NCBI GenBank assembly: GCA_964247135.1 | Contig: CAXTTL010000041.1 | Location: 1 to 26,627 of the forward strand | DNA length: 26,627 nucleotides | Direction of reading: 5' to 3' | Source: an uncultured Deinococcales bacterium | Lineage (GTDB): Bacteria > Deinococcota > Deinococci > Deinococcales > JAAFIG01 | Shown here: piece after piece, positions 1 through 22,351 of the stretch | Layout: each line of letters opens with the position of its first letter | How positions within the stretch are numbered: position 1 is the stretch's first letter | Position numbers and translations under genes: made by a program | Notes under the pieces: model-generated | What the model was told of the DNA's origin: nothing | Databases searched by the model: none | Seen by the model: the letters and a program-made list of their open reading frames with translations, nothing else

Positions 1-249
1 GTCGAGTTCCTAGACCGACATTTATGCTGCAAACATCGTGCCAGGTCGCGGCTCGAGTTCGCGCTCGAGCATGTCGCCGTGAATGTCCACAATGCCTGGA
101 ATGGCGGTCAAACCCCTGCCGTCAATGCTGGTGCCTGCGCGGCTCGGTTTGCCCTCAACGATCTCGGCAATCACCCCAGCCTCGAGCCGTATCGCGCCGC
201 GTTCGATCACGCCCTCTGGCAGAACCAGTTTTAAATCAGTAAGCCACAT
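1..249 (-). pseudogene. phnM: PhnM (alpha-D-ribose 1-methylphosphonate 5-triphosphate diphosphatase), 5' part; interrupted by two in-frame stops near the window edge (pseudogene or end-of-contig base errors)
   Basis: ATG at 249 after GAGGAG. MWLTDLKLVLPEGVIERGAIRLEAGVIAEI...IPGIVDIHGDMLERELEPRPG is the amidohydrolase/PhnM N-terminus. The frame continues FAA*MSV*ELD to the edge. It follows phnL. Confidence 0.75.
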
Positions 250-961
250 AATCAAGCTCCTCGAGCGGCGTTTCCAAAGCTTCATGCGAACTTTTAATCT
301 CCAGCCTGGCATCGATCAAACCCTGCATGTCCTCTGGATGGTGAAACACGCCGATCATGGCGACGCCGTCTTGCTTTAAAAGCTCGAGTCTGGTTTTCAG
401 GGCGGCTCGCGCCCGAACGTCCAGCGATGCGGTGGGTTCGTCCAAGAGCAGCAGACGCCGTGGTCGAATCAGGGCGCGGGCGAGGTTGACTTTTTGCTGT
501 TCGCCCCCCGAAAAGGTGCTCGGGTACGCCTGCCAGAGTTCGGGTTTTAAACCAAAAGTGTCGAGCATCTCCTCGGCACGCTCGAGCGACCTGGGGCGCG
601 ACATGCCATTTTGAAACAAGGGTTCAGCCACCAATTCCAGGGCGCTGACCCGAGGGCGAGGGTGCAAAAACTGCGCGACGTAACCAATTTCGCGCCGTCT
701 GAGCCAGGCGATGTCCTCGTCGGCTGCCCTGGCAAGATCAATCAAACCGCGCGTCGATTCAAACCAGGCACTGCCAGCGCTGGGGCGATTTGAGCGGTAA
801 ATGCAGCGCAACAGGGTGCTCTTGCCGACGCCGTTCGCACCCGAAACCAGCATCAATTTCCCAGCCTCGAGCGTCGCATCGATGCCATCGAAAGCTTGCA
901 CTTCGCGCCCCAGGTGATGGATCAAAAAGCTTTTGCTGAACGACTCGAGTTTTAAAATCAT
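236..961 (-). CDS. phnL: C-P lyase system ATP-binding protein PhnL
   Basis: Walker A GANGVGKST, FSGGEQQKVNLARA signature, LLLLDEPTASLD, IGVFHH; located in the phn operon directly before phnM. Confidence 0.93.
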   Translation of the reverse strand: MILKLESFSKSFLIHHLGREVQAFDGIDATLEAGKLMLVSGANGVGKSTLLRCIYRSNRPSAGSAWFESTRGLIDLARAADEDIAWLRRREIGYVAQFLHPRPRVSALELVAEPLFQNGMSRPRSLERAEEMLDTFGLKPELWQAYPSTFSGGEQQKVNLARALIRPRRLLLLDEPTASLDVRARAALKTRLELLKQDGVAMIGVFHHPEDMQGLIDARLEIKSSHEALETPLEELDYVAY

Positions 962-1728
962 GTGCTCATCCTTTGTGAGAAAGTCCTTGGGACTTCTAGG
1001 GTGTCCAGGTCTTCAATTCGTTTGACCCCGCGCCCGACCATCCGCGCAATGTCCAGCGGCATCCCGCTTTGCTGAATCGCAAAAATCGCATCATGAATGT
1101 TGTACTCGATTCGGTGATGGCAAACCTCGAGCGATTCGGTATCGAGCACCGCATAGGCGGCTCGGGTGTCACCGTCGATGCTGCGTCCAACCGCGCCAGG
1201 ATTGACCACGACCCTGGAAGAAATTTGACAGGCAAAAGCTTCATGGGTGTGACCGAGCACCAGCACGTCCGCATCGACCCGACTGACCAGCAGCGCCAGC
1301 TTCTCGAGGTCCTTGCTGTCGTACCAAGCGTCCAAATACTCGATGCCCGCGTGAAGCACCGCCACGTGGAGGCTGTCAAACACAAAATCCATGCGCCACG
1401 GCAGACCGTTCAAAAACCACTTGTCTCGAGGCTCGACGTGCGTGTTCGTCCAACCAATCGCGGCACGTTTGAGCGGTTCGGTGCGCTCCGAAGAAAGGTT
1501 GCGCGAGGCGGTCTCGTGCCCCAATGCCACCGCGTGATCGTAATTGCCGCGCACGCTGGGAATGCCGTGGGCGCGAAGCAGCGCAATGGTTTCTTGCGGA
1601 TTTGCGCCGTAAGTCACCAGGTCGCCGGCGCACAAAATAAAATCCACACCGTCGCAGCGAAGATCGTGCAAGACCGCCTGAAGCGCCTGAAGGTTGGCGT
1701 GAACATCCGAGATCAAACCGATTTTCAC
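958..1728 (-). CDS. Calcineurin-like metallophosphoesterase (YfcE/MJ0936-like)
   Basis: Motifs SDVHAN, GDLV, RGNYD, HAG, GHTH, NPG. GTG start overlaps the upstream stop (GTGA), and its stop overlaps the phnL ATG (ATGA). Confidence 0.9.
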   Translation of the reverse strand: MKIGLISDVHANLQALQAVLHDLRCDGVDFILCAGDLVTYGANPQETIALLRAHGIPSVRGNYDHAVALGHETASRNLSSERTEPLKRAAIGWTNTHVEPRDKWFLNGLPWRMDFVFDSLHVAVLHAGIEYLDAWYDSKDLEKLALLVSRVDADVLVLGHTHEAFACQISSRVVVNPGAVGRSIDGDTRAAYAVLDTESLEVCHHRIEYNIHDAIFAIQQSGMPLDIARMVGRGVKRIEDLDTLEVPRTFSQRMST

Positions 1729-2336
1729 AATGCACCGTATTTCTCGAGGAAGTTCTCAATATCGCCGCGAAAATCTGGAAGCCTGGTTTTGATGGTTTCA
1801 TGCGACCAATCCCACCAAGCCAATACCTCGAGGTTTTGGGCAATGTTTTTGGGAAATCGCTGTCGAATCGGTTTTGCGGGCACACCCGCCACTATCGAAT
1901 ACGGCGCAATGTCTTTGGTCACAACTGCACCCGCACCGATCACCGCACCGTTGCCAACCTTCACGCCCGCCATGATCGTGGCATTGTGCCCAATCCAAAC
2001 ATCGTGTCCAATAAAAACCGAATGCGAACGCCGCCACTCAAAAAATTCGGCATCGTCGTGACCCAGTTCAAACATCGCCGCACGGTAGGTAAAATGATGC
2101 GTGGTGGCACGCTCGAGCGGATGATTGCCAGGATTCAGGCGCACAAAACTTGCAATCGAGCAAAACTTCCCGACGCTCGAGAAATCCACCTGCGAATGCT
2201 CACCGATGTAGCTGTAATCGCCAAAACTCGAGTTTTCAATTCGGCAAAACGCCCCGATTTCGGTCCACGCGCCAAGCTCAGACGCCTTGACTCGAGCGCC
2301 AGAATGGATGGTGGGTGTGGTGGAAAGTTGGGTCAT
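1725..2336 (-). CDS. Hexapeptide-repeat (left-handed beta-helix) acetyltransferase, phosphonate-metabolism-associated type
   Basis: GDYSYI, VGKFCSIASFVRLNPGNHP, THHFTYR, IGHDVWIGHNATIMAGVKVGNGAVIGAGAVVTKD, WWDW. This family is known from phn clusters. Confidence 0.92.
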   Translation of the reverse strand: MTQLSTTPTIHSGARVKASELGAWTEIGAFCRIENSSFGDYSYIGEHSQVDFSSVGKFCSIASFVRLNPGNHPLERATTHHFTYRAAMFELGHDDAEFFEWRRSHSVFIGHDVWIGHNATIMAGVKVGNGAVIGAGAVVTKDIAPYSIVAGVPAKPIRQRFPKNIAQNLEVLAWWDWSHETIKTRLPDFRGDIENFLEKYGAL

Positions 2337-2710: not shown

Positions 2711-3520
2711 TCACAACTTCGCGTGAACGAGTTGCTGCGTGTAGGCGTGTTGCGGGTCCTCGAGCACCTGATCGGTCAATCCAGATTCGACCACCCGCCC
2801 GCCGCGCATGACCATCACACGGTCTGCGAGTGTGCGAATCACGCCCAGGTCGTGCGAAACCAGAATCATGGTCATCTCGAGTTCAAATTGCAAGCGCTTG
2901 AGCGTGTCGAGCACCAGCGCCTGAACGCTGACATCCAAGCCCGTGGTCGGTTCGTCCAGCAGTAACAGTTTGGGTTTCATGGCGATGGCTTTGGCGAGTT
3001 GCACCCGTTGTTGCATCCCGCCCGAGAGGTGAATCGGCGGTTCGTCCATTCTGGCAATCGGGAATTCGCTGGCGGATAGGGATTCCCTGGCGGCGCGGCG
3101 CAGTTCGGCAAACCGTTTTTCACCCGCCAGTATCAGGCGTTCGGCGACATTGCCGCTCGAGGATTTGTGCATTCGTAGACCCAAATGCGGATTTTGGTAG
3201 ACGATGCCGATGTGATGCACGCGGGTTTCACGTTTTGCGAATCTATCCAGTTCAAATAAATTCTGCCCCGACAATTCGGGAATCTCGAGGTTATACGTGC
3301 CGGTGGTTTCGGGTTCTTCAAGATTTAAAAGGCGTAAAACGGTGCTTTTTCCGCTGCCAGATTCGCCGACAATGCCCAGCACCTCGCCAGGGTAAACGTG
3401 CAGGCTGACATCCTCGAGCGCCCGAATGCTGCCGTAATGTTTGCTGAGGTTTGAAACTTGCAGCAAGGGTTGCATCTCGAGCAGTCGCGGTGCCTCCAGG
3501 GTCATCTCGAGCAAGCTCAT
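2711..3520 (-). CDS. phnK: C-P lyase system ABC-ATPase-like protein PhnK
   Basis: GESGSGKST, YQNP, SSSGNVAERL, LSGGMQQRVQLAKA, DEPTTGLDVSVQA, GLTDQVLEDPQHAYTQQLV; ATGA overlap with phnJ. Confidence 0.93.
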   Translation of the reverse strand: MSLLEMTLEAPRLLEMQPLLQVSNLSKHYGSIRALEDVSLHVYPGEVLGIVGESGSGKSTVLRLLNLEEPETTGTYNLEIPELSGQNLFELDRFAKRETRVHHIGIVYQNPHLGLRMHKSSSGNVAERLILAGEKRFAELRRAARESLSASEFPIARMDEPPIHLSGGMQQRVQLAKAIAMKPKLLLLDEPTTGLDVSVQALVLDTLKRLQFELEMTMILVSHDLGVIRTLADRVMVMRGGRVVESGLTDQVLEDPQHAYTQQLVHAKL

Positions 3521-4458
3521 GCGTTGCCCTTCAAAAATCCTGTGATGTAAAAATTTGTGTCGTCATCAAAATAGGTCGCGCCAATTTCGATGCCCTCACC
3601 CGCCATTTGTCGCTCGAGTTTTTGTTTCAAACCTGTGTCTGAAAGTTGATAGCTCGAGCCGCCACCATCCTGCGGAATCTCGGACATGAATTTTCCGGTC
3701 GCACCCGTGCTGGCGTCCACCCAAGCGCGTTGGTCTTCGATCTGAAATGGCACGTCATCAAACTCGAGCGGGTAGACGTTTGTATACGGTGGCACGGCGT
3801 ACAGGCGTTTTTCGCGCCCCGCCGAAAGCAAAGTCAAGTGTGCCGCCTGATGGAGCTTTGGCGTGTCAAACCGTGGAATCGGACTGGGAGCCATCACATA
3901 ACGCCCGTTGACCAGCACGGGGTAATCCGCGCCGTAACTGACCTCGCGGTACTTGACCAAATCTTCGTACAGCCCGAGCCACAACAGCGCGTAATCGCCG
4001 TCGGCGTGCATCTCTCGAGCGCGGGCGTAACTCGGTTCGACCGTTGATAGGATTTCTGGCATGGGGACTTGCAAGACCAAAACCTGGCGCTCATTCAGCA
4101 TCTCTTCGGGAATGCGGTGGCGCGATTGAATTAGTGTTGCCTCGAGGGTATCGATGGTGGTTTTGACGCCAGTCATGCGGGCAATAAAACGGCGAAGATT
4201 GGCGGCATTCACGCTGTCGTCGTCGCCCTGATCGATCACCTTCACGGTGTGGTTTGCGCCGACCAGCGCCAGGCTGACCTGCAAACCGCCCGTCCCCCAA
4301 CCTCGAGCCATCGGCACCTCGCGGCTGGCATAGGGCACCTGATAACCAGGAATGGCGATGGCTTTTAAAATTTTGCGGCGCAATTCGCGTTTGGCAAATT
4401 CGTCCAAAAAAGCATAGGAATAATCTTGGCGTTCAAACGCCAGTTGCTCGAGTTTCAC
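3517..4458 (-). CDS. phnJ: PhnJ-family C-P lyase subunit, atypical (no cysteines); 313 aa from GTG at 4458
   Basis: YSYAFLDEFAKRELRRKILKAIAIPGYQVPYASREVPMARGWGTGGLQ, KVIDQGDDDSVNA, IQSRHRIPE, RYVMAPSPIPRFD, AGREKRLYAVPPYT. GTG overlaps the phnI stop (GTGA) with GAGGTG upstream. The 4704 start in the ORF track runs into phnI and is rejected. Confidence 0.93.
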   Translation of the reverse strand: MKLEQLAFERQDYSYAFLDEFAKRELRRKILKAIAIPGYQVPYASREVPMARGWGTGGLQVSLALVGANHTVKVIDQGDDDSVNAANLRRFIARMTGVKTTIDTLEATLIQSRHRIPEEMLNERQVLVLQVPMPEILSTVEPSYARAREMHADGDYALLWLGLYEDLVKYREVSYGADYPVLVNGRYVMAPSPIPRFDTPKLHQAAHLTLLSAGREKRLYAVPPYTNVYPLEFDDVPFQIEDQRAWVDASTGATGKFMSEIPQDGGGSSYQLSDTGLKQKLERQMAGEGIEIGATYFDDDTNFYITGFLKGNA

Positions 4459-5546
4459 GCGCCCACCTCTTCCAGTTCCGGCTTTAACGAACCGCCCGCC
4501 TGGGCTTTGCGAACGCGGTCGAGGTCGCTCGAGAAGGTCACGTAATGTGGCAGTTTGTAATGGATGCAAAAGCCCGATGCCTCGACGGGTTCGGTGTGCG
4601 ACAGCACGAATTCTTCGGTGTGCGCTGGGTGCGGGTTGGGCAGGCTCATGGCGACATCGAGCATGGAGGCGGCAATCAATTTGGTCTCGTTCCAGCCCAG
4701 GCACGCCGCAAATCCCAGGCTCAGTTCGGGCGGGGTTTTGCCGCTCGAGAATGGGGTCACGACCTCGGCGCTCGAGACGCGAACCCGCCCAGCCGAAAAT
4801 ACCGCGCCCGTGATCGGATGCTCGAGTTGCACCTCGGCGTAAGCAAGGCGCACCTCGTTGACGGTCGGGTGAATCCCGCCGTAACCGCGCATGTTGGAAT
4901 AACCCAGCGCCAAGATGCCGCCCGTGTCCGCCCGCGCAAGCGCCTGCAAGCGTTGCGCCCTGGGCGCGGGATAAATCGGTGGTTCGCGGGTGATGTCGGG
5001 CAGTGCAGCCACCTCTCGAGCCGTGTTGACGGCTGGCTCGAGTTCGCCACCAAGCAAGCCAACCTCGCGCTGCCAGTCGGTCAGTTTTGGGTAACTCGAG
5101 GGTGCGGCATCTTTGACCTCGAGTTTCGGCTCTTGGGTTGTTTCGGTTTCCAATACCTCGAGTTTGAGAACGCGGTGGCTGTAATCGAGCGTTGGTCCCA
5201 GAATTTGCCCGCCAGGAATGTCTTTGAACGCCGCGCTGATGCGCCGCACGACCATCGATTTTTCACTCGAGATTGGCAGGGCATAACACAGCCTCGGTTG
5301 CGTGCTGCGGTAGGCGCGAAGCAATAAGACCGCCTCGTACAAGTCGCCGCCCGTTTGTGCGAGCGCCAGCGCCGCCAGTTCGGGCGCGTACAACGAACCC
5401 TCGCCCATGACCCGATCCACCAAATACGGCATGTGCTTTTCAATGGCGCGAATGTGCTCGCGTTTCAAATCACCATTCAACAGGCGGTACAAGCTTTCAC
5501 TATTTTGAATCGCCTGTTCGCCACCTCGAGCCGCCACATAAGCCAT
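4455..5546 (-). CDS. phnI: C-P lyase complex subunit PhnI
   Basis: MAYVAARGGEQAI, VDRVMGEGSLYAPELAALALAQ, LLRAYRSTQPR, RRISAAFKDIPGGQILGPTLDYSHR, SGFCIHYKLPHYVTF. ATG at 5546 overlaps the phnH stop (TGATG). Confidence 0.95.
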   Translation of the reverse strand: MAYVAARGGEQAIQNSESLYRLLNGDLKREHIRAIEKHMPYLVDRVMGEGSLYAPELAALALAQTGGDLYEAVLLLRAYRSTQPRLCYALPISSEKSMVVRRISAAFKDIPGGQILGPTLDYSHRVLKLEVLETETTQEPKLEVKDAAPSSYPKLTDWQREVGLLGGELEPAVNTAREVAALPDITREPPIYPAPRAQRLQALARADTGGILALGYSNMRGYGGIHPTVNEVRLAYAEVQLEHPITGAVFSAGRVRVSSAEVVTPFSSGKTPPELSLGFAACLGWNETKLIAASMLDVAMSLPNPHPAHTEEFVLSHTEPVEASGFCIHYKLPHYVTFSSDLDRVRKAQAGGSLKPELEEVGA

Positions 5547-6121
5547 CAGTTGCCGCCCAAAATTTCGAGTTTGGTGCTGCGCGGAATGCCCACAAGCTTG
5601 CATTCGGCATGATCTCGAGCCACCAGCAACAAGTCCCAACCGAGCGGAAAGCTGACGATTCGGTTGCGGAGTTTAAAGACCTCGGGCGGCAAACCAGCCA
5701 CTTCGAGATTGGTCTTGTCTTGAATGCCCGCACCCGATAACTCGAGCTTTAGCCCAGATGAGAACCCGCAGGCGATCACCAAGGTCGCGCTCTGGTCTGG
5801 ATTGAGCAGCGTTCCAATCGGCGCGGATTCCAGCAAAAACAATTGCTCGAGCGAAAATGATGGGTAAAACTGATAGGCGGCTCGGTCGGCTGCCTCGCAA
5901 TGGGCGCCAGTCTTTTTGAATTTGGAACTGAGCGCGGTATCGGGCGTGAAAAAACTCGTCTCGAGGTCGAGCACGGTTTCGGCTATTGTCTCAAGTCCTG
6001 TTAAGTCGTGCTCGAGTGACGCAAAATGCTGAATTTCGCCAGGTCTTGAGAGCGCCCACATGAGCGCCGTAAAGGTCTGCTGCGAACGGGATTCTTGCTC
6101 GGTCAGGGTTGGCACAGCCAT
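5546..6121 (-). CDS. phnH: C-P lyase complex subunit PhnH
   Basis: SQQTFTALMWALSRPG, LDLET, GTLLNPDQSATLVI, LSGAGI, FPLGWDLLL, GIPRST. ATG at 6121 overlaps the phnG stop (TGATG). Confidence 0.92.
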   Translation of the reverse strand: MAVPTLTEQESRSQQTFTALMWALSRPGEIQHFASLEHDLTGLETIAETVLDLETSFFTPDTALSSKFKKTGAHCEAADRAAYQFYPSFSLEQLFLLESAPIGTLLNPDQSATLVIACGFSSGLKLELSGAGIQDKTNLEVAGLPPEVFKLRNRIVSFPLGWDLLLVARDHAECKLVGIPRSTKLEILGGN

Positions 6122-6546
6122 CAAAATGTCTCCATCTGTACACGGGTGCTTTCGACCTGAGCCAGCAAGTTGTGGTCTTGAAGCTCGAGGATTGATCGCT
6201 GGGCTGTCACAAACTCGAGAATCTGTGCTTGCGCCAAACCTTCGGTCCATGCCGCATCCAAAATGGCAATCGCCAGCGCCAACTCGAGGTCGCGCCCGAG
6301 CACCGCGTTGTAACCTTCAGACTTCCCAAGTTTCACTCGAGCGACACTTAAGAGCACTTCGCCCAAATGAAAGGTGGTTCCCTGGGCGCTGTCCACGGCG
6401 GGCAGCATCGCCAAACCCGTGCGATTCTCGAGGACGGTTAAACCGTATGGCTCGAGTTCTGGCAGCAAATCATCGGTGAAGATTTTGATGGCTTCGGGAT
6501 TTGAATTGTTCAAAATTGAAAGCATTTCTGCCTGAACCAGATTCAT
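6121..6546 (-). CDS. phnG: C-P lyase complex subunit PhnG
   Basis: TGLAMLP, FHLGEVLLSVARVKL, GYNAVLGRD, AIAILDA, VESTRVQMETF; lies between phnE and phnH. Confidence 0.9.
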   Translation of the reverse strand: MNLVQAEMLSILNNSNPEAIKIFTDDLLPELEPYGLTVLENRTGLAMLPAVDSAQGTTFHLGEVLLSVARVKLGKSEGYNAVLGRDLELALAIAILDAAWTEGLAQAQILEFVTAQRSILELQDHNLLAQVESTRVQMETF

Positions 6547-7370
6547 GTCAATCGCTCCCGAATTTTGGATGACAGGAAATCGACAAAAAACACCGAGATC
6601 ACGATCAGGGAAATAATCGCGCCTGCGGCTGGGAAATCAAAACCGCGAAGCGCCTCGTTCAAGAAAAACCCGATGCCGCCAGCGCCGACCAAACCGAGCA
6701 CCTGCGCCGCGCGAACGTTGGATTCAAAACGGTACAAGGTCATGGAGGCGATGTGCGGCAAGACCTGCGGAAAAACGCCGTGGGTAAAAGCTTGAAAGGC
6801 GTTGCCGCCCGCCGCCCGCACGGCTTCGATCTGCCCTGCATCCACGGTCTCGATGCCCTCAGAAAACAACTTGGCAAGAATGCCAGTGGTGTAGACCGCC
6901 AGCGCCAGAATGCCCGGAAAAGGTCCCAGACCGACCGCGACCACAAAGACCAACGCCAGCACGAACTCTGGCACGGCACGCAACAAATCGAGCACGCGAC
7001 GGGTGAGAAAGTAAATCACCGGATGCGGGCTGGTGTTTTTCGCCCCCAGAATTGAAAGTCCAATTGCAGGTACAATCGCCAGCGCCGTACCCCACATTGC
7101 CATTTTGATGGTCAGTAAAATTTGCTCGAGGTATTCTGGAAACCTCGAGAAATTGGGGGGTATAAATCCAGAGTTGGGCTTTTCGGCTGTCCCGAACAGC
7201 AACTTCCAGGATTCGCCAACGCCCTGCAACAATTTACCAACACTGATTTCCGTGCCAAAAAATGCCCAGACCATCAACGCCGCAATGCCGAGCCACATGA
7301 CGGTGCTCAGCAAGCGTTGGCGTTTGACTTTGGCTGGCGCCTCAATATTGATGGATTGAACACTTGTCAT
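6543..7370 (-). CDS. phnE: Phosphonate ABC transporter permease PhnE
   Basis: Hydrophobic helices; LRAVPEFVLAL, VGLGPFPGILALA, GILAKLFSEGIE, EAVRAAG loop, YRFESNVRAAQVLGLVGAGGIG. Confidence 0.95.
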   Translation of the reverse strand: MTSVQSINIEAPAKVKRQRLLSTVMWLGIAALMVWAFFGTEISVGKLLQGVGESWKLLFGTAEKPNSGFIPPNFSRFPEYLEQILLTIKMAMWGTALAIVPAIGLSILGAKNTSPHPVIYFLTRRVLDLLRAVPEFVLALVFVVAVGLGPFPGILALAVYTTGILAKLFSEGIETVDAGQIEAVRAAGGNAFQAFTHGVFPQVLPHIASMTLYRFESNVRAAQVLGLVGAGGIGFFLNEALRGFDFPAAGAIISLIVISVFFVDFLSSKIRERLT

Positions 7371-7556: not shown

Positions 7557-8441
7557 TTACTTCTTGAGTTGCTTTTTGACTTCTCGGGCGTCACGAATGG
7601 GGTCGAAGTCTTTGTCGTCCACGGGCAGGTAGCCTTTGATGTTGAACGCGTCCAGACCTTTGGGGTCTTTGAAGTTCAAGAAGGCGTCTTTGATGGCTTT
7701 GCGCAGGCTTTCTGGCAGGTCTTTACGGACGGCGGTTGGACCGTTTGGAATCGGTTTGGAAGTCCAGATGGTCCGCACATCGCTGGCTTTGATGACGCCC
7801 TTGTCGATGGCGGTTTGCAGGCTTTGATCGTTGCTCGCACCCGCATCGACTTTGCCGCCGGCGATTGAAAGAATCGAGTTTTCATGCGAACCGGCGAAGA
7901 TCACCTTGCTGAAATAATCGTCGGGTTTGATTTTCAAATCTTTCAAAAAGTACACCAGCGGAATCAGGTAGCCCGAGGTGCTTTCTGGGTCCACGAACGA
8001 GAAGGTCTTGCCTTTGAGGTCAGCAACGGTTTTGATGGCGCTGTCGGCTTTGGTCATGATCAGGCTCTTGTACGAAGCGCCGCCCTTGATGTTGTTGGCA
8101 ATCACCAAGGCTTCAACGTTGCCATCGCTTTGTTCAACGGCATCGAGGTAGGAGTTTGCACCGTAATCGGCAAGTTCAACCTGCTTGGCTTTTTGCGCCA
8201 AAATAACGGCGGTGTAATCCGCACCGTTTTGAAATTTAACCTTCAAGCCCAAGCTCTTCTCGAGGTGCGCGATCAACGGGGCGTAACGCTGCGTGGCATC
8301 CTTGCTGGCTTCGCTGGGGACGGCGGCGTAACGCAATTCCTCGGGCCAGCCCGTGCGGTCTTGCGCGGCAACGTTCTGAAGTCCCAAACCGAGGGCTGCG
8401 ATAGCCAATGCGCCAATACCAAGTGCTGTCAATTTCTTCAT
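7557..8441 (-). CDS. phnD: Phosphonate ABC transporter substrate-binding protein PhnD
   Basis: Signal peptide [57 protein letters not shown] lies 5 nt before ATG 8441; ATGA overlap with phnC. Confidence 0.93.
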   Translation of the reverse strand: MKKLTALGIGALAIAALGLGLQNVAAQDRTGWPEELRYAAVPSEASKDATQRYAPLIAHLEKSLGLKVKFQNGADYTAVILAQKAKQVELADYGANSYLDAVEQSDGNVEALVIANNIKGGASYKSLIMTKADSAIKTVADLKGKTFSFVDPESTSGYLIPLVYFLKDLKIKPDDYFSKVIFAGSHENSILSIAGGKVDAGASNDQSLQTAIDKGVIKASDVRTIWTSKPIPNGPTAVRKDLPESLRKAIKDAFLNFKDPKGLDAFNIKGYLPVDDKDFDPIRDAREVKKQLKK

Positions 8442-9340
8442 TTCCACTCCTTTTTGCTTCTCGAGTTCGAGAGTCCTGCCGGGTCGTGCGTATAAGAATT
8501 GATGGTGAATTGATTGGTGATTGCGGCGCTCGAGACTGGGGTTGAGATTGGCATGGAAACCACTGGACGCTCGAGATTTAAGTTTTCGATTTCGCTGGGT
8601 TCGTTTTCGCCGTAATAAAGTGCCCGAGCCGCCTCATCGTCGAGTTGATCGGCGCGACCATCGAAGACCACCTGCCCGGCGCGTAAGCCAACAACGCGCT
8701 CGGCGTAATCGCGCACGGCATCGAGGTGATGGAGGTTGACCAAGACCGCAATTTGGTCTTGTTGTTGAATATCGCGCAGCAAATTCATGACCTGTTCGCT
8801 GGATTTTGGATCGAGTGCCGAAATCGGTTCGTCCGCCAAAATCAGTTTGGGTTGTTGCGCCAACGCCCGAGCAATGCCCACACGCTGCTGTTGCCCGCCC
8901 GAGAGCGTGTCCGCCCGCTGCCAAGCCTGTTCTGCCATGCCAACCCGCTCGAGCAGCCGCATGGCAAGTTCGCGGTCCGTTCTTGAGTAGGCTTTAAAAC
9001 TCGAACGCAGGGTTCCCATGAAACCCAAACGCCCGATCAGCACATTCTCGAATGCCGTCAAACGCCTGACCAGATTGAATTGCTGAAAGACCATGCCGAT
9101 CTTGCGACGCTCGAGCCGAACGACCGAATCGCTCGCCTTGGTGATCTCTGTGTTCTCGAGCCAGACCCGTCCGCTGCTGGGTCGCACCAAGCCATTCAAA
9201 ACCCGCATCAAGGTGCTTTTGCCCGCGCCGCTCGGTCCGATCAGCGCCGTGAAATGCTGCCCACCAAACTCGAGGTTGAGGTTTTGAAGCGCCAAAGTGC
9301 CGTTCGCATACTGGTGACTGACCTGTTCGAGACGAATCAA
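8438..9340 (-). CDS. phnC: Phosphonate ABC transporter ATP-binding protein PhnC
   Basis: [52 protein letters not shown] start and a long C-terminal tail. Confidence 0.94.
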
Positions 9341-12834: not shown

Positions 12835-13587
12835 ATGAGATTAATTCAAGATCAACACTCCACGCGTCAAATGGTGCTCGAGGGTGCGTTTAACGTTCGA
12901 GAACTGGGCGGCTTGACGACTGGTGCTGGGCTGCAAACCCGCACCCATCAATTCTTGCGTGCCGATAGCCTTCACGCGCTCAGTCCAGCCTCGCGGTCAA
13001 GGCTGCTCGAGTACGGCTTGAAAACCGTGATCGATTTGCGCACCAGCCAGGAGGTAAGCCAAGACCCCATTCCGTTTGCCGATCACGAAAATGTTCGGTA
13101 CGTCAATATTTCGTTGTTTGAAACAATTTTGCAAAACCCAAACGCCGACACGATGTCCTCCCTCGAGAGCCTCTATATTGCCGCGCTCGACCACTGCCAA
13201 ACCGCGATTCGAGAGGTACTCGAGACGCTGGCGACCAGCCAATCGGTGACGTTGTTTCATTGCACGGCGGGCAAAGACCGCACAGGGATTATTGCCGCAC
13301 TCCTTTTGGCAAATGCGGGGGTTTCTGAGGCGGCAATCACCCACGACTACGCCTTGACCGAACAACTTGCCAAACCGATGCTCGAGCGACTGCTGGGTGA
13401 AGCCGTCAAAAAGGGGATAGACAAAGATTTTTATGCCAAACTCTTGACTTCAAACGCCCAGACCATCCAAGCCGCGCTCTGGTATCTCGAGTCTCGGTTC
13501 GGCAGCATTGAGGGCTATCTTCAAGAAGGTCTGGGAATCGAACGAGGGGTTTTAGATACCTTGAGGTTAAAAATGCTCGAGGATTAA
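12835..13587 (+). CDS. Tyrosine/serine phosphatase-family protein (PtpB/IphP-like)
   Basis: GAFNVRELGG, LRADSL, VIDLRT, P-loop HCTAGKDRTG, DYALT, FGSIEGYL. Confidence 0.92.
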   Translation: MRLIQDQHSTRQMVLEGAFNVRELGGLTTGAGLQTRTHQFLRADSLHALSPASRSRLLEYGLKTVIDLRTSQEVSQDPIPFADHENVRYVNISLFETILQNPNADTMSSLESLYIAALDHCQTAIREVLETLATSQSVTLFHCTAGKDRTGIIAALLLANAGVSEAAITHDYALTEQLAKPMLERLLGEAVKKGIDKDFYAKLLTSNAQTIQAALWYLESRFGSIEGYLQEGLGIERGVLDTLRLKMLED

Positions 13588-18755: not shown

Positions 18756-19667
18756 TCACCTCAAGGATTTTTTGGCTTGCTCGAGTTTTCTGATCGGGTC
18801 GTACTCGGCATCGCTGGCTGGCGCAAAACTTTTGAGACCGATGCGCGTCAGGGCTTTTTTATCATGAAATGACAGCACGGCTTCGCGCAGCGCTTTTTGC
18901 AAACTTGGCGGCAGGTCTTTGCGGTACGCCAGCGGAAACGTGGGAATGGTTTCGGATGTCCAGAGGATGTTGAGCGCCTTGATGTTCTTGATCTCGCCGT
19001 CACGAATCGCCACGTCGATTTCGCGGTCGTTGGTGGCGGCAACACTGACTTCGCCCTCGATCACGCTTTCGATGTTGGCTTCGTGCGAACCGCCAAACGA
19101 AACATTTTTAAAGTAGGTTTCGGGTTTGATCTTCAGGTCGCGCACCAAATGCAGCCACGGCAGCAGGTAGCCCGAGGCGCTTTCGGGATCGACAAAGGCG
19201 AAACTTTTGCCCTTGGCGTCGCTCAGGGTTTTGATGCCGCTGTCCGCCCTCGAGACGATCAACGAATGATAACCAAGCCCCGTTTTGATCGTGTTTTCCC
19301 TGGCAAACGCCACCGCCCCGCCGCGCTCTGCCGCCTGAACATACGCCAGCGGTCCCATGTAGGCAAAATCGAGTTTTTGTGACGCCATGCCAACAATCAC
19401 CGCCAGGTAATCGGGTCCAAAGTAAGGTTTGATTTTCAAACCCAATTTTTGCTCGAGGTGATCGATCAGCGGTTTAAAACGCTCCCTGGACTCGAGGCTG
19501 GCTTCGGCGGGAATGATGCCAAAGGTCAGGGTCGAAGCCCATCCCGTGCGATCTGGGACGCTTTGGAGGCTATTTGTATTGGCTCGAGTCTTGCTTGGCG
19601 CGGCTTGGCTGGCAAACATCAGGCTGGTTGCAATTAAACCAAACGCCATCACTCCAAAAAATTTCAT
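18756..19667 (-). CDS. Second PhnD/PtxB-family substrate-binding protein (no cognate permease adjacent)
   Basis: GGAGGGAG RBS before ATG 19667; signal peptide; DRTGW, DYLAVI, FVDPESASGYLLP, GGSHE, RKDLP, YDPIR. Confidence 0.88.
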   Translation of the reverse strand: MKFFGVMAFGLIATSLMFASQAAPSKTRANTNSLQSVPDRTGWASTLTFGIIPAEASLESRERFKPLIDHLEQKLGLKIKPYFGPDYLAVIVGMASQKLDFAYMGPLAYVQAAERGGAVAFARENTIKTGLGYHSLIVSRADSGIKTLSDAKGKSFAFVDPESASGYLLPWLHLVRDLKIKPETYFKNVSFGGSHEANIESVIEGEVSVAATNDREIDVAIRDGEIKNIKALNILWTSETIPTFPLAYRKDLPPSLQKALREAVLSFHDKKALTRIGLKSFAPASDAEYDPIRKLEQAKKSLR

Positions 19668-19729
19668 TGAGTCTCCCTCCAAAAAAACCCGAGATGCCAA
19701 ATCAATCTTGGCATCTCGAGCAAGCTGAT

Positions 19730-22351
19730 TTAACGGGTGGCGCTGTCGCTGTAAGGGTCGGTCAAGCCAACCGACTTGGAGAGGTTATTGACCACCGTCT
19801 GCACCGCAGCACTTGGTTTGGACATCTGAACGTTCTTCCAGTGGCGGTAGGCGCGTTGGGCTTCGGTGTTGAGTGGGTTGGCTCGAGCGCTCATTTTGAC
19901 GGCTGGCATTGGGCTGTTCTCGCCCTTGACGGCGTGCCAAATGATGTCATTGAAGACCCGTTCGTCCACCGCATCGGCTTTTGCCAAATTCAAGCCGTTG
20001 GAGAGTTTGGCTTTGTACGCCAGCAGCGTGTTCATGGTATCAAGCGGTTGTTTTGGCACGACCGACTTGTAGGGCGCAAGGTTTGGCGCGTCTTGAAAGG
20101 TGGCGATCATCGGCGTGGCGGCGGCATCAAACTGGGTCATCGGCGGCAAGCCCAAAATCAGTTCAATCGTGCGCAACATTGAGGTGGTCGAGTACATCGT
20201 GTGGTCGCGGACGTTGCGTTTGCTGTAGGCGCTGATGGCGAGCGCGGGCATACGGTGTGCGTCCACGTGATCCGCCCCGTTTTGCGCGTCATCCTCGAGC
20301 ACGAAAATGGCGGTGTCTTTCCAGTAAACGCTGTTTGAAACCGCTTCGACCAGTTTCCCGAGCGCCAGGTCGTTGTCGGCGACGTAGGCGGCTGGAATCG
20401 GCGAACCGACCCGGGTGCCATTGGTGTGATCCCTGGGCAGGCGCACCACCGAAAGTTGCGGCAGTTTGCCGTCTTTCACGTAACCGTCAAACTCTTGCTT
20501 CCAGGCGTCAAAACGAACCTGATCGCTGATTGCCATGCTGTAACCTGGGAAGGTTGGCGAGAGCCGACCCTCGAGCGCGGTGGCAAAAAGGGTTGGTTTG
20601 ACGTTGGGTGCGGCGCTGGCGAAATCGTTGAACTCACCGTAGGAGCGGTAATCCAAACCGGCGCGTTTGGCATAATCGAACAGGTAGCCGCCGGCTGGGG
20701 CGCTGGCGGTCGAACCCATCTCGAAGTCGTAATCGCGCCCCCTGGGCGAGTAATTTGCCACCCAGTTGCGTTGGGTGTATTGCGTGGCAATCGCGCCCAT
20801 CGTCCAGTTGTGACCGTCGGCGCTGACCTCGGCATCGGCGTAAAAGTTATCCAGCAAACCAAACTCGAGCGCCAGGGCGTGTTGGTTGGGGGTGACGTCC
20901 TGCCCGAACAACTCGAGGCTGGGGTCTCCGTTGCCCTCGGTCAGGCTGCCGTACAGTTGGTCGTAGGTGCGGTTTTCTTTGATCACATAAATCACGTGCT
21001 TGATCGGACTTGGGTCGCCGGCGCGAAGCGGAATGGCGTGCGGCGTGCTTGATGCCGCTCGAGCCAGCACGCCTTTGGTGTTCTCCAGACCGTTGTTTTT
21101 CGCCACGGTGGCGCTGTACGCCTCGAGGGTTTTGGCGTCTGGCGTCGGAATCACCGAGATTGTGCCTCGAGCCATCGCCGCAATGTATTGCTCGCTGGGG
21201 TTGCGTTTGTCGGGCACGGGTCCTTGCGGGTTCGGTCCGGCACCCAGACCTTTCATGTTGGCGGCAAACAAGAACGTGCCGTCTTTGCTGATTGCCACGG
21301 CGCTCGGAAACCACGCCGTCGGGATGCGCCCATTGACTTTGCCGCTGGCAATGTCCACCACCGCAATCGCGTTCTCGCCGCCGAGGGTCACGTAAAGGGT
21401 TTTGTTGTCTGGCGCAACGGTCAATGCGGTTGGCATCGAACCGGCTGGCGCTCCGGCGTAAGGCTCGAGGTTGAGGGTTACGCTGACTTTGTTGCTGGCG
21501 GTATCAACAACGCTGACGGTGTTCGCGTTGGTGTTCGCCACAAATAAACTCTTGCCGTCAGGTGACAGCGCCATTGCACTCGGATGCGCCCCAACTTCGA
21601 CTCGAGCGACCTCTTTCAGGCTGGTGGTGTCTACAACTGCAACCGCTTTGGCATTCTCGAGCGCCACATACAAGCTTTTGCCATCGCTGGAAAGTTGCAG
21701 CATGTACGGCATCTGCCCGATGTCGGTGGCACTGGCGACGCCGCCAAATTTGATGGTTTTCAGGTTCGTTTGCGTGCGGCTGCTGGCGAGGTCAATCGCG
21801 GCGACGGTGTTGCCCAGGTTGTTCGCCACGAACAAGGTTTTGCCGTCTTGTGAAGCCGCCAGACCAGATGGAAAGATTGGGGTGCTCGAGTCTCCCAGCA
21901 CGATGCTCGCGTTTTCGGTCAGTCTGCCCGCATCGAAGCTGTAGCTGCGGATTTTGTTGTTGCCGCCCGCCGAGGCGTACAAATTCTTGCCGTCCGCGCT
22001 CCAAGTTACCCCGACGTACAGGGCTTCTGGGGCTGGGTACGGGATGGTCTGGGCGACGCGGCGGGTGTAGGTGTCAACCAGCGTCAATCCCTGCACGCCC
22101 TGACCGCAGTTGACAATTGCCAGATATTGACCGCTCGGGCTGAGCGCCACACCCATCGGACGGTCGCCAACCTCGAGCTGCAAGCCGGCGGGGCTGAGTA
22201 CCCAATTGTTCGGCGTGACGCCCGTGCCATCGGCTTGCGGTCCAACTTTGCCGAAGAAGGCAAAACCTGCCGCCGTGACCGCTCCGATGGTCAAAACACC
22301 CATCACCAAAATGCTCGAGATTACCTGTTTGCGCTTTAATACCTGCATCAT
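19730..22351 (-). CDS. Secreted YncE/YVTN beta-propeller + phosphoesterase (alkaline-phosphatase superfamily) protein, copy 1
   Basis: N-terminal hydrophobic signal; repeated LSxDGKxLFVAN/VSVVDT blades; KHVIYVIKENRTYDQ, DNFY, SADGH, LPRDHT, ADNDLALG, EDDAQNGADHVDAHR. Confidence 0.9.
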   Translation of the reverse strand: MMQVLKRKQVISSILVMGVLTIGAVTAAGFAFFGKVGPQADGTGVTPNNWVLSPAGLQLEVGDRPMGVALSPSGQYLAIVNCGQGVQGLTLVDTYTRRVAQTIPYPAPEALYVGVTWSADGKNLYASAGGNNKIRSYSFDAGRLTENASIVLGDSSTPIFPSGLAASQDGKTLFVANNLGNTVAAIDLASSRTQTNLKTIKFGGVASATDIGQMPYMLQLSSDGKSLYVALENAKAVAVVDTTSLKEVARVEVGAHPSAMALSPDGKSLFVANTNANTVSVVDTASNKVSVTLNLEPYAGAPAGSMPTALTVAPDNKTLYVTLGGENAIAVVDIASGKVNGRIPTAWFPSAVAISKDGTFLFAANMKGLGAGPNPQGPVPDKRNPSEQYIAAMARGTISVIPTPDAKTLEAYSATVAKNNGLENTKGVLARAASSTPHAIPLRAGDPSPIKHVIYVIKENRTYDQLYGSLTEGNGDPSLELFGQDVTPNQHALALEFGLLDNFYADAEVSADGHNWTMGAIATQYTQRNWVANYSPRGRDYDFEMGSTASAPAGGYLFDYAKRAGLDYRSYGEFNDFASAAPNVKPTLFATALEGRLSPTFPGYSMAISDQVRFDAWKQEFDGYVKDGKLPQLSVVRLPRDHTNGTRVGSPIPAAYVADNDLALGKLVEAVSNSVYWKDTAIFVLEDDAQNGADHVDAHRMPALAISAYSKRNVRDHTMYSTTSMLRTIELILGLPPMTQFDAAATPMIATFQDAPNLAPYKSVVPKQPLDTMNTLLAYKAKLSNGLNLAKADAVDERVFNDIIWHAVKGENSPMPAVKMSARANPLNTEAQRAYRHWKNVQMSKPSAAVQTVVNNLSKSVGLTDPYSDSATR

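Follow-up and report, generated by a model that had tools for sequence, protein, structure and literature searches.

A cysteine-free PhnJ from an uncultured Deinococcales bacterium belongs to a conserved variant branch of the C-P lyase complex

The closest described relative of the system reported here is the carbon-phosphorus (C-P) lyase of Escherichia coli. Its subunit PhnJ, the alpha-D-ribose 1-methylphosphonate 5-phosphate C-P lyase, is integral to the PhnG2H2I2J2 core and docks PhnK, as described in the sections of PMC9947105 that were accessible. The same sections model the product 5-phosphoribosyl 1,2-cyclic phosphate (PRcP) at the zinc (His) site between PhnI and PhnJ, where His328 and His333 of PhnI are metal ligands and the loop 37-49 lines the pocket. 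Here we describe a PhnJ without any cysteine, which is encoded in a phnGHIJKLM operon of an uncultured Deinococcales bacterium (assembly GCA_964247135.1, contig CAXTTL010000041.1, positions 1 to 26,627). This whole stretch of 26,627 nucleotides is called the window in the following.

The gene phnJ is the marker for aerobic methane formation from methylphosphonate and for the breakdown of glyphosate and other phosphonates. The reaction of the catalytic E. coli PhnJ is an S-adenosylmethionine-dependent turnover of PRPn into PRcP plus an alkane. Cys241, Cys244 and Cys266 of E. coli PhnJ are the [4Fe-4S] ligands, and Cys272 is the proposed thiyl radical residue (available portion of PMC11978286). 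In the accessible text of PMC11978286, PMC9947105, PMC6852614 and PMC9477430 the four cysteines are treated as conserved; they are regarded as defining and universal and are used to validate PhnJ calls (PMC11978286). The E. coli mechanism itself contains a gap. According to the accessible sections of PMC9947105 the cluster site lies about 30 Å from the radical glycine Gly32, which is not reconcilable with the radical mechanism, and the product is found at a third site. Full-text literature searches, with supplementary files, the primary mechanistic and structural papers and the main review outside them, yielded no description of a cysteine-lacking PhnJ. Nor did these full-text searches return any paper on how Thermus, Deinococcus or Meiothermus use phosphonates.

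The window phnJ and the residues that correspond to the catalytic positions of E. coli PhnJ are located as follows:
3517-4458, minus strand, phnJ, 313 amino acids with no Cys in the translation
4345-4347, minus strand, PhnJ Gly38, aligned with the glycyl radical site Gly32 of E. coli and kept in the motif AIPGYQVP
3715-3717, minus strand, PhnJ Asp248 (GAC), in the column of E. coli Cys241
3706-3708, minus strand, PhnJ Thr251 (ACG), in the column of E. coli Cys244
3643-3645, minus strand, PhnJ Leu272 (CTT), in the column of E. coli Cys266
3625-3627, minus strand, PhnJ Lys278 (AAA), in the column of the proposed thiyl radical residue Cys272 of E. coli

Sequence, fold and context all identify the protein as a PhnJ family member. 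The PF06007 (PhnJ) profile matched with 404.8 bits (cut-off 25) and was covered from position 2 to 271 of its 275 positions. Pairwise alignment with E. coli PhnJ (PDB 7Z15 chain D) gave an E-value of 2.8e-84. The two proteins share about 49% identity and the same fold over residues 10-284 (PDB 4XB6, 7Z15-7Z19). An AlphaFold2 model with a predicted local distance difference test score (pLDDT) of 88.8 superimposed on E. coli PhnJ (7z19_D) with a Z score of 37 and a root mean square deviation of 1.7 Å over 273 of 276 residues. The paralogous subunit PhnH has a common core fold (Z 15.2 to 2FSU) and no Fe-S site, but neither the C-terminal domain nor the central insertion of PhnJ (accessible sections of PMC9947105). 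Both elements are present in the model of the window protein, which is hence a PhnJ. In addition, the gene is situated between phnI and phnK.

The hallmarks of the catalytic mechanism as characterised in E. coli are missing in this PhnJ. Neither the three cluster ligands of the E. coli type (D248, T251 and L272 instead) nor the thiyl residue (K278 instead) is available. Around the four positions the flanks G-x-T, (F/Y)(L/M)-x-E and SDT keep register with E. coli PhnJ; therefore, the changes are substitutions and not a frameshift. Each of the codons GAC, ACG, CTT and AAA is two or three base changes away from TGY. Other functional residues are retained, namely Gly38, the active-site histidine His114 (E. 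coli His108) and the acidic and aromatic residues of the PhnK docking site. Judged by its residues, the protein cannot hold a [4Fe-4S] cluster with the known ligands or form the Cys272 thiyl radical. Consequently, it should not be filed as a C-P lyase of the radical-S-adenosylmethionine (SAM) type. A preliminary description of this DNA, made from the sequence alone, had reported the cysteine-free PhnJ, named the D/T/L/K replacements with all four codon positions exactly right and excluded a frameshift. It had further stated that the Gly32 equivalent, the RHRIPE histidine and the PhnI histidine pair (His329/His334) are retained. The translation and the alignments bear all of this out. Its caveat that sequencing reads might restore the Cys codons fails on the number of base changes that each codon would need.

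In order to determine how widespread the loss is, the 120 clusters most similar to the window PhnJ (67-92% identity) in a collection of 5.8 billion proteins were scored by alignment column. A library of representatives at 50% identity was uninformative, because PhnJ is too conserved and the matches were mostly fragments. Not one of the 120 clusters carried Cys in the C244, C266 or C272 column. The C241 column held Cys in 64 clusters and Asp (48), Ser (6), Ala (1) or Gly (1) in the others, and 48 of the proteins were completely free of Cys. Gly38 and the motif AIPGYQVP were invariant in 120 of 120 clusters. A subtype of PhnJ thus exists that lacks Cys244, Cys266 and Cys272 and often also Cys241.

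Comparison of 80 species-representative genome loci gave a similar picture. The variants comprised 29 loci (L002-L030) from Deinococcales, Meiothermus and other Thermaceae, Trueperaceae, many Anaerolineae and Chloroflexales, and Mesorhizobium retamae. In five Dehalococcoidia loci (L031, L032, L034, L035 and L037) Cys241 was the only one of the four cysteines left. The remaining 46 loci were canonical, 45 of them with all four cysteines and one (L051) without Cys244. PhnJ matches were obtained in 42 of 364 Deinococcota genomes. The sequences of 37 regions from 36 of these genomes were checked, leaving out four same-genus cases (92-94% identical) and one with fragments only; 33 genomes contained variants and three contained canonical PhnJ. 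Among the 34 variant regions nine had none of the four cysteines and 25 had Cys241 only. A sample of a second phylum was taken as Chloroflexota, since one match was identical to a protein named Candidatus Oscillochloris fontis. PhnJ was present in 28 of its 401 genomes, and all eight variant-like proteins were confirmed by sequence. Four of the 20 canonical-like proteins of this sample were also checked: two had the four cysteines and two had no Cys at the aligned C244 column. Three Chloroflexota loci (L051, L109, L110) keep Cys241, Cys266 and Cys272 and have no Cys in the C244 column, L051 with an insertion C-S-Y-G-H-Q. Either an intermediate state or an offset in the alignment may lie behind this.

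Cultured strains carry the variant as well. PhnJ was encoded on 215 of their plasmid records, and the 16 best matches were of the variant type. One-Cys variants were present in all five records that were opened among these 16: Thermus thermophilus HB8 pVV8 and SNM1-1, Mesorhizobium sp. AR07, Sinorhizobium sp. B11 and Haematobacter massiliensis OT1. Within Deinococcota the variant branch predominates, in Chloroflexota it is common, and rhizobial plasmids carry it as well. The window PhnJ is the only PhnJ of its own genome (84% complete, 386 contigs), and the variant is also the sole PhnJ in four of five other carrier genomes tested. The loss, which the preliminary description had considered as possibly unique to this genome, is common to all of the nearest clusters and to 33 of 36 checked Deinococcota genomes.

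A few members of this collection are unusual. In Mesorhizobium retamae (L030, L094, L099, L100) one genome holds three PhnJ genes. About 14 kb separate its variant operon from a further PhnJ gene (454 bits, Pfam PhnJ), and a confirmed four-Cys PhnJ is on another contig. This co-carriage suggests that the variant and canonical types are not redundant. A genome labelled 'uncultured Pleurocapsa sp.' (G002, locus L020) contains PhnJ and PhnI nearest to Anaerolineae. The second phylum sampled above, taken as Chloroflexota, is the phylum of this genome, and its label or binning is probably wrong. The Thermus-like one-Cys PhnJ of L151 (G229) reads AIPGHQVP for AIPGYQVP, so that the residue beside the radical glycine is altered.

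The ratio of nonsynonymous to synonymous substitution rates (dN/dS) was calculated according to Nei-Gojobori for 10 pairs drawn from the window gene and its close relatives. It amounted to 0.047-0.10 for the whole phnJ gene and to 0.03-0.26 for the Cys-less C-terminal 70 codons alone. For the variants of Dehalococcoidia, Thermus and alphaproteobacteria values of 0.10-0.34 were obtained. Variant phnJ is held by purifying selection and is not decaying.

The phylogeny of PhnJ was reconstructed from the N-terminal core (residues 10-243), which excludes the trait columns. The first tree contained 122 rows; 38 library rows were left out as they were fragments or did not read GCCCC. The 63 variant rows formed one branch with a Shimodaira-Hasegawa-like approximate likelihood ratio test (SH-aLRT) support of 97, and the five one-Cys Dehalococcoidia rows were nested in four-Cys Dehalococcoidia. 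A second tree of 87 rows retained one in six of the database rows and omitted 17 near-duplicate loci and eight library rows with long branches. Here the alphaproteobacterial plasmid forms fell within the variant clade. Thermus was placed outside, although a grouping of Thermus with the clade was not rejected by the approximately unbiased (AU) test (p 0.53). Likewise, a single origin of all variants on the PhnJ core was 23 log-likelihood units lower and not rejected (AU p 0.12). A PhnI tree of 64 rows, from which one frameshifted and 16 near-duplicate loci had been dropped, also united the clade proteins in one branch (SH-aLRT 98). It placed the PhnI of the Dehalococcoidia group inside canonical Dehalococcoidia (96 and 99 for the starred sets). 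Because the PhnI tree puts this group among canonical proteins, the same three cysteines were lost at least twice independently, with Cys241 spared at first each time; the PhnJ core alone does not decide this. The preliminary description had asked whether Cys-less PhnJs form a clade under purifying selection, as they do (SH-aLRT 97), and its alternative of relaxed selection does not agree with a strongly purifying dN/dS of 0.047-0.10.

The loss of the cysteines is accompanied by changes elsewhere in the complex. They are found at these positions:
4330-4332, minus strand, PhnJ Tyr43, clade-specific, aligned with E. coli Phe37, with which loop 37-49 begins
3520-3600, minus strand, PhnJ C-terminal extension, residues 287-313, clade-specific and aromatic, beyond the end of E. 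coli PhnJ
4566-4568, minus strand, PhnI Cys327 (TGC), clade-specific, Val326 in E. coli, two residues ahead of the metal-binding His329
4545-4562, minus strand, PhnI His329 and His334 in H-Y-K-L-P-H, aligned with the metal ligands His328 and His333 of E. coli

The window PhnI, which aligns with E. coli PhnI at an E-value of 3e-69, is 56-91% identical to the PhnI of the 29 clade loci and 31-44% identical to those of the other loci. The partner subunits have co-diverged. For PhnJ the gap is smaller (60-94% within the clade versus 52-61% outside). No compensating Cys cluster was found, and no columns of PhnG, PhnH, PhnI, PhnK, PhnL or PhnM showed gains beyond a single clade-specific Cys. A nearly invariant new Cys of PhnI is part of the motif S-G-F-C-I-H-[YF]-K-L-P-H, which all but one of the 30 clade rows share; the row without it is frameshifted. 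All 43 canonical rows and all four rows of the Dehalococcoidia group read S-G-F-[VLI]-[ES]-H-L-K-L-P-H without Cys. Of 25 further Deinococcota variants 24 had Cys327, as did all eight variants of the second phylum. Tyr43 of PhnJ occurred in 63 of 63 clade rows and in 120 of 120 nearest clusters, whereas 98% of 47 canonical rows and all five Dehalococcoidia-group rows have Phe at this column. The C-terminal extension follows the motif G-x-T-Y-[FY]-D-D-x-G-x-F-Y-x-x-G-[YF]-L-K, and T-Y-[FY]...F-Y was conserved in 119 of the 120 nearest clusters. Its pLDDT was above 90 up to residue 310, while the E. coli chain aligns only up to model residue 284-286. In comparison with E. coli the complex has the same partners G, H, I, K, L and M and keeps the PhnI metal histidines. 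It differs in the four replaced cysteines, the extension of 27 residues and the Tyr for Phe37 of PhnJ, and in the Cys for Val326 of PhnI.

Two groups outside this clade have lost the same cysteines. The PhnJ of T. thermophilus HB8 pVV8 (L113, 8977-9858), annotated as PhnJ by RefSeq, is a one-Cys protein in a full phn operon, and the literature search found no study of it. Like the window protein, the PhnJ proteins of pVV8 and SNM1-1 are from the same phylum and have C244, C266 and C272 replaced (C-T-V/I-M). The T. thermophilus locus likewise contains the full set phnCDE-GHIJKLM, the gene of the hexapeptide family and a metallophosphoesterase nearby. Unlike the window protein it keeps Cys241 and has no extension, no PhnI Cys (GFALHY) and no Tyr43 (QVPF). 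The Dehalococcoidia group is a natural replicate of the cysteine loss with the pattern C-S-A-A. It shares the three losses and the purifying selection with the window clade, but keeps Cys241 and a canonical PhnI His site and has neither the extension nor Tyr43.

The operon has the order phnCDE-GHIJK-(acetyltransferase, phosphoesterase)-LM. All of its genes are open and lie on the minus strand:
8438-9340, minus strand, phnC, ATP-binding cassette (ABC) transporter with intact Walker A, signature and Walker B motifs
7557-8447, minus strand, phnD, phosphonate-binding protein, equivalog-level match of 288.7 bits (cut-off 261.1)
6543-7370, minus strand, phnE, phosphonate ABC transporter, equivalog-level match
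6121-6546, minus strand, phnG, family match
5546-6121, minus strand, phnH, start ATG at 6121 overlapping the phnG stop
4455-5546, minus strand, phnI, 363 amino acids from ATG 5546, Pfam PhnI 391 bits, start picked by alignment with relatives
2711-3520, minus strand, phnK, Walker A, signature and Walker B motifs intact
2337-2710, no strand, AT-rich spacer of 374 nucleotides inside the operon, between phnK and the hexapeptide transferase gene
1725-2336, minus strand, hexapeptide-repeat transferase of the phosphonate-operon family TIGR03308, 304 bits (cut-off 201.65)
958-1728, minus strand, YfcE-like calcineurin-type metallophosphoesterase, family match
236-961, minus strand, phnL, Walker A, signature and Walker B motifs intact
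1-249, minus strand, N-terminus of phnM with ATG at 249, cut at the contig end and continued on contig C128

Neighbouring genes overlap at six junctions, by 1 nucleotide at G/H and H/I and by 4 nucleotides at I/J, J/K, acetyltransferase/phosphoesterase and phosphoesterase/L. PhnK (229 bits, equivalog cut-off 303) and PhnL (221 bits, cut-off 256) scored below the NCBIfam equivalog cut-offs, as did PhnG; PhnK and PhnL are still the best NCBIfam matches of these two proteins, and the low scores fit a divergent subtype. The window part of phnM matches model positions 1-80 with 64 bits, and the rest (positions 69-376, 333 bits) is open at the end of contig C128 (L093, 13013-13990), where unrelated CoA-transferase genes follow downstream. 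The two contig ends overlap by about 50 nucleotides with several mismatches, which create false TAG and TAA stops in window bases 1-25. The overlapping end of C128 encodes the same phnM peptide without stops. Hence the phnM stops, which the preliminary description had read as a possible sign of decay, are an artefact of the contig edge. The tight coupling of phnG-H-I-J-K and the intact phnL that it had noted agree with the overlaps and with the ATPase motifs of PhnL. Following its suggestions, the genome was also searched for a second, canonical phnJ and for a linked radical-SAM gene. No second phnJ was found in this 84% complete assembly, no radical-SAM gene is linked to the operon in the window, and none of the ten radical-SAM-domain genes of the genome is on the two phn contigs.

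Two accessory genes of the operon were followed through the 80 loci. The hexapeptide transferase is not specific for the clade (20 of 29 clade loci versus 15 of 51 others). The phosphoesterase is restricted to the clade without being universal in it (10 of 29 versus none of 51); absences in these neighbourhoods are soft, as several loci are short. Clustering of the 80 neighbourhoods revealed no clade-specific accessory gene beyond this phosphoesterase and one 278-amino-acid family. The latter is an open reading frame (ORF) family (e.g. L006 2167-3003, minus strand) that occurs in six of 29 clade loci and in no others.

Further phosphorus-related genes are located in the rest of the window:
18756-19700, strand not stated, second PhnD-like binding protein
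19730-22351 and 22383-25007, minus strand, tandem paralogues of 873 and 874 amino acids with a 7-bladed beta-propeller and a PF04185 phosphoesterase
12835-13587, strand not stated, tyrosine-phosphatase-family gene
Together with another ABC importer that is also within the window, they mark this stretch as a phosphorus-scavenging gene island.

The complex most likely still turns imported phosphonates into usable phosphorus, because equivalog-level PhnD and PhnE adjoin it in a phosphorus island and because the ATPases and PhnM are intact. These bacteria probably degrade phosphonates via an undescribed route. In the explanation that we favour, at slightly better than even confidence, the window protein is the selected PhnJ of a distinct and widespread C-P lyase subtype that carries out C-P chemistry at the His site of PhnI and PhnJ, with no PhnJ cluster and no SAM. 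Bond breaking would be carried out or initiated at this metal site, where PRcP binds in E. coli, by a route needing neither a PhnJ-bound cluster nor SAM. The C-terminal extension may brace the C-terminal domain in place of the metal centre that was lost. The His site appears to be remodelled in the clade by PhnI Cys327 and PhnJ Tyr43. Since both residues were gained together at the His site, it is the best candidate for the new chemistry, which favours the 'His metal site' among the options named in the preliminary description. The claim made there that the locus is a candidate for an undescribed system stands: the cysteine loss is real, the complex is intact and no description was found in print in the full-text searches, so that the reservation that such variants might already be characterised has found no support there.

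Several points weigh against this explanation. No activity data were found for any variant member. The invariant Gly38 would also fit a radical mechanism that is started by something else. In Thermus and the Dehalococcoidia group three cysteines were lost without the PhnI Cys or the extension; therefore, the gain of Cys and Tyr is not a general solution. In the PhnI monomer model (pLDDT 53.5) residues 319-340, around Cys327, are below 50. The best matches to PhnP and PhnN in the own genome reached 101.5 (cut-off 272) and 55 (cut-off 156), respectively, in a genome that is 84% complete; the YfcE-like phosphoesterase of the operon might stand in for PhnP. Finally, unactivated C-P bonds cannot be cleaved heterolytically, and methyl- and alkylphosphonates cannot lose a carbanion. 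If these are substrates, some oxidant or radical source is therefore required.

Chemistry of a suitable kind is known elsewhere. The PhnY*/PhnZ system of oxidative C-P cleavage and enzymes with Cys-Tyr/metal radical cofactors, such as galactose oxidase and cysteine dioxygenase, perform O2 or protein-radical chemistry at a His-ligated metal without an Fe-S cluster or SAM. For the gained Cys and Tyr they serve as an analogy in mechanism and nothing more. It is possible, though doubtful, that the lyases of this branch break unactivated C-P bonds with neither Fe-S nor SAM, by means of an O2-tolerant protein radical or a metal-thiolate centre formed from Cys327 and Tyr43 at the His site. If this were true, it would suggest that in all C-P lyases the bond is actually broken at the His site rather than at the remote Cys cluster.

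The alternative that survives best, although we regard it as unlikely, is that PhnJ has become a scaffold. The steps of PhnI and PhnM, in which the phosphorus compound is ribosylated and pyrophosphate set free, would be kept. Either the substrates would have a leaving group for which no radical is necessary, such as phosphite, P-N, P-S or P-O compounds or activated phosphonates, or the ribosyl-phosphonate would be passed to another enzyme. As PhnJ is integral to PhnG2H2I2J2 and docks PhnK (PMC9947105, accessible sections), assembly alone could conserve it. Some alphaproteobacteria carry the variant beside canonical operons, as in the three PhnJ genes of Mesorhizobium retamae, and the operon on pMspAR07c of Mesorhizobium sp. 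AR07 adjoins a peptide-type ABC transporter and not phnCDE. The co-carriage and this transporter suggest a different substrate. The clade-restricted phosphoesterase also counts in favour of this alternative. However, the Cys-less C-terminal domain and its extension are conserved (dN/dS 0.03-0.26) beyond what a dispensable appendage would require. The active-site His114 is retained, and the operon of Deinococcota and Chloroflexota contains an equivalog-level PhnD with this protein as the sole PhnJ present.

A second possibility, which we judge to be rather improbable, is a radical made in trans, where a separate activase, either a radical-SAM or an adenosylcobalamin-dependent partner, installs the radical on Gly38, so that PhnJ would do without a cluster of its own. 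Radical-SAM activases are known from glycyl-radical enzymes, and the B12-dependent ribonucleotide reductase offers a further comparison. The invariance of Gly38 and of AIPGYQVP in all 120 variants and the ten radical-SAM-domain genes of the genome are consistent with such a partner. Yet the location of all ten genes away from the two phn contigs and the lack of a variant-specific accessory gene other than the phosphoesterase across the 80 loci argue against it. Moreover, with the thiyl carrier Cys272 lost and 48 of 120 variants free of Cys, a glycyl radical would be left without a known relay in PhnJ. The glycine motif is just as invariant in canonical PhnJ and may be structural.

It is highly improbable that the operon is decaying and that the cysteines were lost under relaxed selection. 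The apparent phnM stops at window bases 1-25 and the scores of PhnK, PhnL and PhnG below their cut-offs would fit decay. Against this, the stops stem from the contig-edge mismatch, dN/dS is 0.05-0.10, the genes are open and coupled, the Cys-less state is conserved across phyla and the low scores agree with a divergent subtype. Removal of the Cys codons by sequencing or assembly error has no evidence in its favour in this fragmented assembly of 386 contigs and is practically negligible in view of the two to three substitutions per codon and of independent assemblies that concur, among them complete plasmids of cultured strains.

A large and selected group of PhnJ without these cysteines implies either that surveys count other enzymes or that C-P cleavage is possible without Fe-S cluster, SAM and thiyl radical. 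The variants matter both for the unsolved mechanism and for the use of phnJ as a marker in the environment. Aerobic and thermophilic bacteria that are amenable to genetics carry them, for example T. thermophilus HB8 and isolates of the Deinococcus group, which makes the question testable with stable proteins.

Some minor observations concern the operon and the window. Two public sequencing runs were listed as holders, with a word share of 0.05 each, and RNA runs were not among the holders listed. A 124-amino-acid ORF at 2340-2714 was considered as a missing subunit and rejected, because it has no family match, is of low complexity and lies in the AT-rich spacer. This spacer (2337-2710) contains two stretches of 80 and 97 nucleotides that are 84-86% conserved in the same-genus locus L003 and holds a GC-rich palindrome-like element; Rfam gave no matches in the window. 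The tandem paralogues of 873 and 874 amino acids combine a lactonase-like propeller with PF04185 in an unusual architecture and adjoin the second PhnD-like gene; their role is probably phosphorus scavenging. In Actinomycetota (Pseudonocardiaceae, Streptomyces, Nocardia and others) an in-frame PhnJ-PhnK fusion of about 600-630 amino acids with all four cysteines was observed (L056, L059-L061, L063-L065, L070, L072-L074 and L076-L078).

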